Of a stretch of DNA of 64,000 nt, positions 30,770 through 54,523 are shown piece by piece. The notes beneath the pieces are model-generated. The model made no database searches. It had not been told where the DNA came from and saw only the letters and a list, made by a program, of their open reading frames with translations. The translations under genes and the position numbers were made by a program. Each line of letters opens with the position of its first letter. Within the stretch, counting starts at the first letter, position 1. Source of the DNA: Methanoregula sp. (lineage in GTDB: Archaea > Halobacteriota > Methanomicrobia > Methanomicrobiales > Methanospirillaceae); contig JAJRCF010000011.1 in the NCBI GenBank assembly GCA_028679075.1, forward strand, positions 9,217 through 73,216, read 5' to 3'.

Positions 30770-30842
30770 AGCCTCAGCCGTGATTTGAACACGGGACCTG
30801 CTGATTACAAGTCAGCCGCTCTGCCAACTAAGCCACTGAGGC
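30770..30842 (-). tRNA. tRNA-Thr(TGT)
   Basis: The reverse complement folds as a cloverleaf: GCCTCAG acceptor, GCTGA-CTTGTAA-TCAGC anticodon arm, CCGTG-TTCAAAT-CACGG T arm. Confidence 0.96.
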
Positions 30843-51216: not shown

Positions 51217-52551
51217 ATGGATGTCGAGGAGTATGCCCGCAGGGGACTCGCAGAAGGTACTGAAGAAAAAACCCTGCAGGAAAAGCTGGCTGATCACATT
51301 GTCCGGATGAAAAATGCCAGCCCCTCCTATGCATCAGCGTTCGCCCGCGCCGTTATTGAAGAAGTGAAGAACACTCAAGGGTTGTCCGGCGACTTTTTTA
51401 CCTTTGAACCGGCCGGCGTCCGGATGGGCGAGTTCGGCGTGGGTTCCCGGGGAAAAGGGGATTTTTTTGCCCACCGCCAGATCGCCCGCATCATCGGGAA
51501 GACGTCTGCCTCCGTTGGTGTTGACGAGATGGACGATGCCGGTGCGGTCTGTGCCGGGGGAAAATACATCATTTGCACGGTCGACGGGATGCACTCGCGC
51601 CTTTCGGATTTTCCGTACCTTGCCGGTTTCCACGTGACCCGCGCAACGCTCCGTGACGCGTACGTGATGGGGGCAAAACCGATCATGCTCTTCTCGGATA
51701 TCCACGTTGCCGATGACGGCGATGTGGCAAAGATCTTTGATTATACCGCAGGTATCACGACCGTTGGCGAGGCAATGGACGTGCCGCTTGTCACCGGATC
51801 GACCCTGCGCATTGGTGGCGACATGGTGCTTGGCAGCCGGCTCACCGGGTGTGTCGGTGCCGTGGGCGTGGCCGAACACCTGACTGCCCGGAAGTCCACG
51901 CAGCCGGGGGATGTCCTCCTGATGACGGAAGGTGCCGGGGGCGGGACGATTGCGACAGCCGCGATCTATTCAGGGTTCCCGGAAGTTGTCGAAGAAACAA
52001 TCAACCTGAATTTCCTCATGGCCTGCGAGGCGCTGATGAAGAGCAGCGTCTTTACGCAGATCCACGCGATGACGGATGTGACGAACGGGGGGCTCCGCGG
52101 CGATGCGTTCGAGATGGCCGAGACTGCCGGCTGCCGGATCGTCATTGACGAGTCAGATATCGGCAGCCTGGTCCAGTCCCAGGTGAAGGAGATGCTCGAA
52201 GCGCTGAAGATTGATTACCTTGGCGTTTCGCTTGACTCCCTGCTCGTGGTTGCACCGGCCGGAGCTGCCGATGAGATCTGCCGCGTGATCCGGTCGGCCG
52301 GTGTCACGATGAAGCAGGTCGGGCACGTGGAAGAGGGGAAGCCGGAAGCGGTGCTCCGTGCCGGTGGTAAAGACCATGACTTCTCGCCCCGGTTCCGTGA
52401 ATCCGCGTACACTCCGGTGAAGAAGGTGGCGGATACGGAGATGCGTGACTTTGAGGAGATGAAAGCGGGAGTGGTGCGTGCCTCTGAAGCGGCGATACAG
52501 AAAAAGCAGCGGGTGCTGAGCCGGCTGCGGGCCGGGAAGGGCGGGTTTTAA
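51217..52551 (+). CDS. AIR-synthase-related protein (PurM/HypE/SelD superfamily)
   Basis: MGEFGVGSRG-x-GDF, DDAG, VDGMHSRLS, HAMTDVTNGG-x-RGD and LGVSLDSL. Confidence 0.8.
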   Translation: MDVEEYARRGLAEGTEEKTLQEKLADHIVRMKNASPSYASAFARAVIEEVKNTQGLSGDFFTFEPAGVRMGEFGVGSRGKGDFFAHRQIARIIGKTSASVGVDEMDDAGAVCAGGKYIICTVDGMHSRLSDFPYLAGFHVTRATLRDAYVMGAKPIMLFSDIHVADDGDVAKIFDYTAGITTVGEAMDVPLVTGSTLRIGGDMVLGSRLTGCVGAVGVAEHLTARKSTQPGDVLLMTEGAGGGTIATAAIYSGFPEVVEETINLNFLMACEALMKSSVFTQIHAMTDVTNGGLRGDAFEMAETAGCRIVIDESDIGSLVQSQVKEMLEALKIDYLGVSLDSLLVVAPAGAADEICRVIRSAGVTMKQVGHVEEGKPEAVLRAGGKDHDFSPRFRESAYTPVKKVADTEMRDFEEMKAGVVRASEAAIQKKQRVLSRLRAGKGGF

Positions 52552-52637
52552 AAAATATTTTTTGGGCCACGTGCGAAAAAAATTTTTGTGAACGTAAATT
52601 TTTTTAGAAATTTTTTGATACAGTGCCTGCTCTCACA

Positions 52638-52910
52638 ATTTATTTTTCCTGAGGAGTAAGGGGTCTCATGAATTATTTTTGATGAGGGGGTAGGGGGGTC
52701 ACGCAAATTTTTTAATGAGGGGTACCCCCCCTCAGTAAAAATTTTTCGTGAGGGTCTGCCCCTGTTTTCGAAACGGTTTACGACGGGACGCTGTGTTTTT
52801 GCGTGGGGAAAATCGTGAGGGGTAGGGGATGTGAGCGAAAAAATCTGATGAGGGGAGTGGGGGCTCAGGCAAATATTCTGGTGAGGGGTCGGGGGGATTG
52901 GAAACCCTGT
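52638..52910 (+). repeat. Degenerate 33-bp tandem array (A/T-tract followed by TGAGGGGTAGGGG)
   Basis: TGAGG at 52650, 52683, 52716, 52749, 52816, 52849 and 52882; one degenerate slot near 52782. Confidence 0.85.
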
Positions 52911-52982
52911 CCCACACCGGTATACGACGGAATCCAGCCCCGTAACCTCCTCTTAGATAGTGCAGATCCGGACTCATGCAAA

Positions 52983-53078
52983 ATACCTGTCACAGGTCAC
53001 TGACCTGTCCGATGCACCTGACCTGTCACGGGTCAGATACCTGTGACAGGTCAACTGACCCGTATTAGGGAGCCCTAA
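52983..53078. repeat. Palindromic 9-bp lattice of TGACCTGT sites followed by TTAGGG-AG-CCCTAA
   Basis: Eight TGACCTGT-like cores in alternating orientation; palindrome centres at 52991, 53000, 53027, 53045 and about 53054. Confidence 0.88.
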
Positions 53079-53615
53079 AACTGCGATCCAAAACAGGGGT
53101 TCTTTTCGGTTTCCAGGACCATAGCCTGTTTGAAAAACGATCGGCCATCCAATTGCGTCTATTAGCCTATATTATATTCTTCGACGGAGAAAATCCAATC
53201 CGGGCCCGTATCGGGTGGGAAAATCTCCTTATTGTATCGTTTTTTGGGAATTAGACACGTTTGAGTGGGGTCAGGCTGGTTCCCCGTTATCGGTCTCCGA
53301 CGGTGAGTGGAGTTTGTGAGAGGGTATCTTCCCGGGAGTATTCCGGAAGGATGATCTCCGACGTGAAATTTGCTTTTACGTCAGGGATGATCTTACAGGC
53401 CCCCTGTTTGTGAAAAACCACGAATGTGTTTCTGACAGTGGGGGATGTTTTAGTGGGTGGAGTGTTGGGGGTGTGGGATGAGTGGACCGGAATATTTTCC
53501 GGGCCGGGAAATTTTTTGTAAAAAAGATTTAGGAAAAAAATCTAAAAAAAATTTAGAGAAAATTTCTCAATGGAAAATTTATTGAACCGTGCTAGGTTGT
53601 ATTGATCATGAAAAT

Positions 53616-53725
53616 TGTGATGAACGGCCGCCGCCCCGAAGGGCGCCCCGCGGCGGATCAGTGACGAAAAGCAAAATACTCATTGCCCCGCCGCGCCTCG
53701 GAGAGGCCCTGAGGCGGGAGGCCTC
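53616..53725. repeat. Structured GC-rich dispersed repeat, copy 1
   Basis: CCCCGCGGCGGATCA (53646-53660) and TGCCCCGCCGCGCCTCGGAGAGGCCCTGAGGCGGG (53684-53718) are shared with copy 2. Confidence 0.85.
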
Positions 53726-53794
53726 ACAATTTTTTATGGTTTCGGTGTGAACTTGATCTGTTGATACCCGTTTCCGCAGGGTTAAAATTCCCGG

Positions 53795-54523
53795 TTATTC
53801 CCGGGGCTTCTTAGCACTCACAAAAATATTATACGCCAGTTGCGGCACCCGCTTCTCGACAAACGGCTCGATCTTGCTGGCAAGGTTGTACAGCGGGTCG
53901 ATCATGTCGATGTGGGCAAACGAGCACCACTTGACCGCAATGTCCGAGAACCCGGCCTGGTTGAACAGGTCGTTCATCTCGTCTTCATTGTAATAATGCT
54001 CGCCGAAATCCTTCATGACCACGTGCCTGACATTCATCTTCTCGCTGATCTGGTACAGTGCCGGGATGCCCCGGGTCAGGAGTTTTTTCCCAAGCGTGCA
54101 GATCGCAATCGCACCCCCGGGCCGCAGCACGCGATACGACTCCGACAACATCGTCTCCGGGTCCCTGACATAACTGAACACCAGCAGGCTGGAGACGGCA
54201 TCGAACGAATTGTTGCGGAACGGTAACGTCTCGCCATTCCCCTCGGCAAACTCACACCCGGCGCAACGGTGGCGCGCCCGTGCGGTCATCTTCCGGCTGA
54301 TATCGAGGCCGACCGCGGTCCCCCCGTGGCGGAGATACTTCTCGACAAAGAGACCTGTCCCGCACCCGATATCGAGGAGGTCGCCCTTTTCCGGCAGGGC
54401 TTTGATGAGATAATTGCTGATGTGGGTGTGGTAGTTCCGGCCGCGGGGATGATCGTAGTGGTGGTCGTACGTATCCGCAACGCTGTCATAATGGTCGCGG
54501 ATCTTCTCCTGCCTGACGGTCAC
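53795..54523 (-). CDS. Class I SAM-dependent methyltransferase (UbiE-like)
   Basis: LLDIGCGTG, GLDIS, LPFRNNSFDAV and RVLRPGG. Confidence 0.9.
   Translation of the reverse strand: MTVRQEKIRDHYDSVADTYDHHYDHPRGRNYHTHISNYLIKALPEKGDLLDIGCGTGLFVEKYLRHGGTAVGLDISRKMTARARHRCAGCEFAEGNGETLPFRNNSFDAVSSLLVFSYVRDPETMLSESYRVLRPGGAIAICTLGKKLLTRGIPALYQISEKMNVRHVVMKDFGEHYYNEDEMNDLFNQAGFSDIAVKWCSFAHIDMIDPLYNLASKIEPFVEKRVPQLAYNIFVSAKKPRE

Follow-up and report, generated by a model that had tools for sequence, protein, structure and literature searches.

The DNA considered here is a 64,000-nucleotide stretch of one contig (C11) of a Methanoregula genome (G000), hereafter the window. At 52638-52910 it holds an array of 33-bp units which is, close to certainly, a copy of a lineage-restricted, non-coding, dispersed mosaic repeat family of Methanoregula. 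The spacer in which the array sits is 1.24 kb long, free of genes and bordered by two convergent genes; next after the downstream one, 1.6 kb from the array, comes an RFC-small-subunit-like gene. The locus comprises the following parts.

51217-52551, + strand: AIR-synthase-related gene, the upstream flank.
52552-52637, + strand: A/T-rich lead-in directly 3' of the AIR-synthase-related stop, with GAAAWTTTT-type motifs and many T5+ runs.
52638-52670, + strand: unit 1, a degenerate direct unit with a TGAGGAGTAAGGGGTCTCA core.
52671-52703, + strand: unit 2, a canonical direct unit, AATTATTTTTGA-TGAGGGGGTAGGGGGGTCA-CG.
52704-52736, no strand: unit 3, the palindromic unit TGAGGGGTACCCCCCCTCA, position-equivalent in nearly all copies of the family.
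52699-52751: 53-nt extended dyad on unit 3, TCACG - A/T box - TGAGGGG TAC CCCCTCA - A/T box - CGTGA.
52737-52803, + strand: 67 bp comprising a half unit and the conserved central spacer; no part of the composite is better conserved.
52804-52836, + strand: unit 5, direct, first of the right block.
52837-52869, + strand: unit 6, direct.
52870-52901, + strand: unit 7, terminal and truncated, TGAGGGGTCGGGGGG, without TCA.
About 52918 to 53108, + strand: palindrome module starting with the second CGGTATACGACGG, four 13-bp palindromes ACCTGT-N-ACAGGT at 18-bp steps.
53795-54523, - strand: methyltransferase gene, the downstream flank.

TGAGG is found at 52650, 52683, 52716 and 52749 and again at 52816, 52849 and 52882, stepping by 33 bp, and by 67 bp (2 x 33 + 1) across the central spacer. 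The exact 33-bp recurrence read by the initial annotation is therefore borne out at all seven positions, and two repeat programs recover the period: Tandem Repeats Finder called it independently at 52640-52722, and a separate repeat search placed four copies in register. One strand of the 2.5-Mb genome contains 2839 copies of the pentamer, and the chance expectation for four of them on a 33-bp lattice is about 4e-6 per genome. Each 33-bp unit opens with an A/T linker of 14 bp, after which come TGA, 13 G-rich bases and TCA; 37 units drawn from all copies give the consensus TCA-cgaAAAaaTTTTGc-TGAGGGG-tag-GGGGG-c-TCA. The earlier statement that spacing is conserved while the rest of the unit has diverged was thus right about the spacing and too strong about the divergence, since a full-unit consensus exists. 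Across copies, TGA-N13-TCA is kept in 37/43 units, the linker measures 14 bp in 17/17 cases, and adjacent units are 33 bp apart in 42/47; the unit geometry is strikingly constant despite slippage-prone G runs. Unit 3, which had been described as a hairpin, is indeed a true palindrome (TGAGGGG-TAC-CCCCCCTCA, 52716-52734) and the centre of the 53-nt dyad, whose 24-nt arms are 88% complementary by repeat search and which folds well as single-stranded DNA (-17.2 kcal/mol, z = -4.7, with 0/200 shuffles as good). Inside the central spacer, CGGTTTACGACGG at 52774-52786 carries the motif TTYACGWCGG, to which we return below.

The array is one copy of a composite of about 240 bp, at least four full and two partial copies of which occur in the genome. 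The full copies are the present one on C11, C36:1790-2030 (C36a), C36:4390-4620 (C36b) and C38:5750-5970; the partial ones lie on C39 and C6. Because the assembly is fragmented (40 contigs) and about 90% complete, these numbers are lower bounds. Among 228 genomes of the family, 107 of them Methanoregula, a pattern search found true arrays in four (G000, G019, G143 and G158), and a metagenome scan added a few further chromosomal-looking copies on peat contigs. At about 14 loci the plan is alike: two to four direct units, the palindromic unit, a 56-67-bp spacer specific to each subfamily, and two or three direct units, all in one orientation. A/T-rich GAAATTTTT segments like the lead-in also stand beside other copies (C36:1680-1750; G158:1772k). 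Copies are intergenic, those of C11, C36b and C6 at gene 3' ends or between convergent pairs and those of C36a, C38 and C39 beside a 3' end; the genes flanking them are AIR-synthase-related, methyltransferase, TBP, YhcG nuclease, kdp, tmk and SRAP genes. Some sites are orthologous between genomes: the C11 array corresponds to G019:C20 (313k) and G158:2322k, C36a to G019:C2, and C38 to G143:C35. The G019 ortholog of the C11 array has one extra whole unit, unit number shifting by whole 33-bp steps, and the G158 ortholog (G158:C1:2322220-2322490) is inverted relative to the same flanking genes, so that either the segment was inverted locally or an array was inserted independently into this hot spot. 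On C36 (L001), between 1790 and 4620, two direct array copies 2.6 kb apart bracket a TBP paralog, a 105-residue open reading frame (ORF) without a Pfam family and a YhcG/DUF1016 PDDEXK nuclease; G019 has the first of these arrays, the TBP gene and the ORF in common with G000, and then different genes. TBP genes number about five in G000. The spread of the family probably took place in the common ancestor of a small clade, through duplication and recombination; in the literature we found no description of such repeats in Methanoregula.

How strongly are the units held? Relative to G143, where the fourfold sites of the neighbouring tmk gene are 55% identical, the TGA and TCA trinucleotides of the array are identical in 24/24 cases, the G-rich inner part at 0.79 and the linker at 0.81, while non-unit positions, at 0.57, stand at the neutral level. 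Relative to G019, the central spacer is identical at 54/55 positions where fourfold sites are at 0.85. These alignments indicate that the units are under constraint. The constraint shows no sign of base pairing: positions flanking TGA and TCA pair no better than shuffles (16-31 pairs vs 19.5-31 expected), and compensatory changes at the unit stems, an impression gained by eye, failed the shuffle test in both the 33-bp family and the 25-bp family described next.

The 33-bp arrays do not stand alone. A second family of G000 has 25-26-bp units with a CAAGGTCTG core and a AAAATTTT tract, and occupies six or more loci (C1:13838-14150, C1:168467-168860, C1:282430-282838, C18:46620-46903, C11:2086-2430 and C15:38340-38640), the C11 one 7 kb before the start of the window. 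Its cores differ from that of the 33-bp family, TGAGGGG-N-GGGGGG-TCA, whereas plan, AnTn-type tract and spacer motif are shared: a left block, a 65-bp conserved spacer (TTYACGWCGG ... CAGATCTGTTTAAC) and a right block, with TTYACGWCGG common to the spacers of both families. Hybrid units with a CTGAGGGGGTG core lie at the edges of several 25-bp arrays. The 25-26-bp family occurs in 46/107 Methanoregula genomes and is almost absent elsewhere among the family genomes searched; the 33-bp family occurs in 4/107, and two of its carriers, G158 and G143, have almost none of the 25-bp family. Copies of the 25-bp family occur in divergent, tandem and convergent contexts alike, and composite arrays of the two families together number at least 10 per 2.5 Mb. 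Other species have, in this intergenic hot spot, 32-bp arrays built on other cores (L093:7472-7855 and L078:2689-2806); in the L093 array, a spacer of about 55 bp separates blocks of 6 and 5 units (GTCCGGTAAC..GCCGGAC plus TTTTTGAAAA). The 33-bp TGAGGGG arrays are thus a subfamily of a genus-wide class of same-orientation, two-block arrays around a conserved spacer at many intergenic loci. Selection on helical phase as such, which had been suggested from the 33-bp step, is weakened by this comparison: since sister families of like architecture step at 25-26 and 32 bp, helical phase is not the common selected property, and what is selected in common is fixed spacing within each family.

The surroundings of the array are variable. 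The same flanking gene pair occurs in 80 other Methanoregula genomes with a gap of about 20 bp to 2 kb filled by mutually unrelated DNA, so that the spacer is a variable hot spot and not a conserved control region. In L058 and L017 the pair stands 20-30 bp apart, and filled sites differ by kilobase-scale unrelated DNA, without a clean empty site. At the present locus the spacer is itself a mosaic of dispersed modules, namely the array and the segments 52920-53108, 53149-53252 and 53615-53735. The palindrome module, the first of these segments, accompanies arrays of both families (copies at C36:1222-1467, inverted and adjoining C36a; C1:13540-13693, adjoining a 25-bp array; and C10:48592-48662) and is present in L045 without any 33-bp array. 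The segment 53615-53735 is a GC-rich hairpin module, CCCCGCC...GGCGGGG, often a few hundred bp from arrays and with nine or more copies in the genome (C1 x4, C2, C16, C11:66567, C36:4675 and C38:6070). Another dispersed element, of about 450 bp and with G-run and C-run palindromes (GGGGGGTACCCCCC, TGAGGGGAGGGG), lies at C14:26700-27250, C12:1-400, C4:3950-4350 and C8:40850-41290, and also on C21, C26, C37 and C6:3000; its GGGGTACCCC occurs 13 times in the genome vs 1-6 times for comparable palindromes, and, because it is often at contig ends, the element probably breaks the assembly. Elsewhere in the window, 9000-31000 is a low-GC block (0.40-0.49 vs 0.53-0.62) that ends at a tRNA-Thr gene (30770-30842, - strand) and looks like a laterally acquired or glycan-biosynthesis island.

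With moderate confidence, we propose that the array, a dispersed mosaic repeat, works as a lattice on which a protein docks cooperatively; the uncertain part is the docking mechanism. Each unit would be a site of fixed geometry, TGA-N13-TCA around a stiff G tract; alternatively, the unit may be viewed as a 20-bp A/T-centred palindrome, TCAC-N-A5T5-N-GTGA, recurring every 33 bp or about three helical turns, and the linker with its bordering TCA and TGA is symmetric at 8/10 consensus pairs. The units of a block would be occupied cooperatively, along one face of the helix, by a sequence-specific DNA-binding protein that is probably a dimer; this would turn each block into a nucleoprotein complex of about 100-130 bp, and a second factor would sit on the central core. 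Oligo-T runs stop archaeal transcription, and those on both strands might make each copy a two-way transcription stop or an insulator between genes, which would suit placement between convergent genes. Among known proteins, Lrp-like regulators recognise palindromes with an A/T centre whose spacing is two or three helical turns, and about 100 bp of DNA is wrapped in the complex (PMC2995911; PMC2715240). The motif of MC1 selected in vitro, AAAAACACAC(A/C)CCC(C/A) (PMC3928310), was also compared and does not match, its A run preceding the C run and the array units having the opposite polarity.

Several observations weigh against this proposal. Part of the conservation of the G-rich and A/T tracts is compositional, which is not the case for the invariant trinucleotides and the fixed spacing; and what is conserved might benefit the spread of the element itself and not the host. 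No mobility signature, such as terminal inverted repeats or a target-site duplication, was seen at the copies. Comparing the neighbours of the copies, we found no gene that constantly adjoins them. The strict box form of feast/famine regulatory proteins (FFRP), abcde[AAT/ATT]e'd'c'b'a' (PMC2715240), is rare, with 0 boxes of the TGAAAWWWTTTCA or CGAAAWWWTTTCG type in 33-bp arrays and 2 in 25-bp arrays. Finally, the spacing of two or three turns typical of Lrp/FFRP sites (PMC2995911) is matched by the 33-bp step and missed by the 25-26-bp family, and because the latter step does not fit such a lattice, a single wrapping model cannot cover the whole class.

Could the arrays be purely selfish or satellite DNA, a parasite resembling a miniature inverted-repeat transposable element (MITE) or a repetitive extragenic palindromic (REP) sequence, or a seeded tandem satellite, whose conserved positions would be the recognition sites of a mobilising enzyme and which would have no host function? 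Much of the distribution would agree with this: the presence in only 4/228 genomes is narrow and patchy; the copies are multiple and occupy intergenic hot spots of high variability (20 bp to 2 kb across the 80 genomes); at the present locus the array is intermixed with other dispersed modules; and orthologs differ in their number of units and, in one case, in orientation relative to the flanks. We nevertheless regard it as rather unlikely. The boundaries of C36a and C36b (GATCGCC...GGGGGGCAGG) have neither terminal inverted repeats nor target-site duplications, which sets aside a classical MITE; PF01797, the Y1 transposase family to which the REP-associated tyrosine transposases (RAYT) belong, has no match in the 90% complete genome at E <= 0.01, whereas control genomes matched; and orthologous copies keep their motifs intact although fourfold sites are near saturation, where inactive junk would be expected to decay. 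A CRISPR array was also considered and discarded, the whole 33-bp unit being the repeat, without unique spacers.

A role in transcription alone is more doubtful. Here the A/T linkers (e.g. CGAAAATTATTTT) would serve as promoters resembling a B recognition element (BRE) and TATA box, the oligo-T stretches as terminators, so that the array would start or stop transcription, perhaps with a tiny RNA made from the central spacer, or would insulate convergent genes. At least nine T5+ runs, read by eye, lie on the + strand at 52552-52800, right after the upstream stop; the central spacer ends in GTGTTTTTGCG; copies lie at gene 3' ends or in the space between convergent genes, as detailed above; and the linker consensus, cgaAAAaaTTTTGc, resembles an archaeal BRE plus TATA box. 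On the other hand, the invariant TGAGGGG...TCA cores are left unexplained, the array has no Rfam match, the putative spacer hairpin is broken in paralogs without compensation (a comparison by eye), and copies of the sister family are indifferent to the orientation of the flanking genes.

The initial annotation had also suggested iteron-like binding sites, and as a description this stands, given the fixed geometry, the 24/24 identity of TGA and TCA and the absence of covariation; a unique, Orc1/Cdc6-bound origin is not supported. That the array is a replication origin or iteron set, whether an extra chromosomal origin or what is left of one that came with an integrated plasmid or virus, is very unlikely. 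The locus does combine direct repeats of about three turns, a large dyad and flanking A/T-rich DNA, the RFC-like gene is near, and direct repeats at integral helical turns (the 33-bp step in 42/47) are what plasmid and viral iterons display; moreover, the two direct C36 arrays flank a 2.3-kb segment (TBP, the 105-residue ORF and YhcG) as would be expected after integration of a circle by recombination. Yet the orc1/cdc6 genes of G000 (C18:13173-14282, - strand, and C3:57387-58436) are on other contigs than C11, and no array lies near either of them in G000 or in the complete G158 chromosome, in which they stand at 820 and 1315 kb and the arrays at 394, 1464, 1772, 1978 and 2322 kb. Beside one of them, C18:14300-15200 has inverted origin recognition boxes (ORBs), TTCCACACGAAACAAAGGGG, around a 100-bp A/T-rich stretch, the duplex unwinding element (DUE), with an Lrp/AsnC-like gene adjoining, and is the probable chromosomal oriC; nothing array-like flanks the second. 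A unique origin or Orc1/Cdc6 site is contradicted by the multi-copy state (at least 10 composites in 2.5 Mb, both families taken together), the distance from orc1/cdc6, a sequence unlike the ORBs and the direct units. As to plasmids and viruses, no Rep gene adjoins the array and no Rep_OBD/RepB-type domain occurs in G000, PLSDB and INPHARED hold no array match, a pattern scan of IMG/VR returned unrelated G-rich matches only, and array orientation in G158 has no replichore polarity. A likeness of TACGAC to the pMV158 nick site was also weighed and dropped, as G000 has no Y1_Tnp or Rep_OBD domain.

We give equally little credence to an explanation by non-B DNA, in which a G-quadruplex, i-motif or cruciform formed by the asymmetric G runs and the dyad would make the array a hot spot of recombination or pausing. 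All G runs of the array but one are on one strand, the GC skew of the array kilobase, 0.198, exceeds that of every other kilobase of the window, shuffled sequences fold much less well than the 53-nt dyad, and arrays lie in structurally variable regions. Against this, each unit has by inspection two G runs (11-12 G), so that three tetrads could be assembled only across two units, with a loop of about 20 nt, and G structure fails as a common principle, the sister families being built alike without being G-rich. A structured RNA was likewise rejected: the array has no Rfam match at E <= 1, RNA folds of the whole array do not stand out from shuffles (z = -1.4 for one strand and -1.9 for the other), and the stems do not covary. 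The probability that the minus strand encodes an 11-residue, PPxPSxxF-like repeat peptide, as 33 bp (11 codons), an 81-residue ORF at 52732-52977 (- strand), a 113-residue stop-free stretch on that strand and a frame also open in G019:C20 and C36b might suggest, is practically nil, for the longest open frame is not on the same strand or in the same frame from copy to copy and is missing from C36a, C38, G143 and G019:C23, nearly all changes between C11 and C36b in the shared frame alter amino acids (K>Q, Q>R, R>C, R>S; peptides compared by eye), the frame has no Pfam match, the ORF would start inside an unrelated repeat module, and the orthologs keep the periodicity with no intact 11-residue-repeat ORF.

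Overall, evenly stepped, conserved arrays under selection point to an uncharacterised DNA-binding protein and its sites in Methanoregula, a dominant producer of methane in peatlands; to our knowledge, almost nothing is known of chromosome organisation and gene control in this genus. A broader picture, unlikely and offered as speculation, is that the arrays are genus-specific nucleoprotein landmarks: phased arrays of 25, 32 and 33 bp, each family read by its own architectural or Lrp-like paralog and with a shared factor on TTYACGWCGG, would together form chromatin boundaries, insulators or loading sites for chromosome organisation. If so, the 33-bp TGAGGGG family would represent a recent switch of specificity in one small clade. 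In practical terms, the repeats explain hypervariable intergenic spacers, and they may contribute to contig breaks in metagenome-assembled genomes of Methanoregula, some matches of the sister family lying within the first few hundred bases of contigs. Because their distribution is narrow, the arrays are usable as lineage markers, and neither a replication origin nor a small repeat protein should be annotated at the locus.

The arrays share traits with several known systems. Archaeal oriC has ORB and mini-ORB elements that, like the units, are G-string repeats next to A/T-rich DNA, whereas the ORBs of G000 are inverted and beside orc1, and the arrays are direct, multi-copy and remote from orc1/cdc6. 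In the parC centromere of plasmid R1, two same-orientation repeat blocks flank a core and a small dimeric protein binds cooperatively; the two-block direct plan of such parC and iteron centromeres is like that of the arrays, which differ in having no adjoining partition or Rep genes and no plasmid match, in occupying many chromosomal loci and in a unit three times longer. The pap operator of Escherichia coli has two triplets of sites about 100 bp apart. Lrp/FFRP operators in general (pap and ilvIH of E. coli; archaeal Ss-LrpB, FL11 and Ptr2) have A/T-centred boxes about three turns apart in sets of about three sites (PMC2995911), and a block of three or four units would suit an Lrp-type complex. 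The match is only partial: such operators belong to the control regions of the genes that they regulate and do not form dispersed repeats, whereas the C11 array lies between two convergent 3' ends, and the G-rich invariant cores have no counterpart in them. The arrays are not REP sequences or bacterial interspersed mosaic elements (BIMEs) in the strict sense, for enterobacterial REPs are hairpin palindromes in alternating orientation, mobilised by RAYT (Y1) enzymes, while the array units are direct, with flank pairing at shuffle level, no covariation and no Y1 transposase found. In a wider sense the resemblance holds, in that the arrays too are dispersed, non-coding, intergenic and multi-copy, often at gene 3' ends, of variable copy number and combined with other motifs in mosaics; and enterobacterial BIME and REP elements are bound by host proteins.

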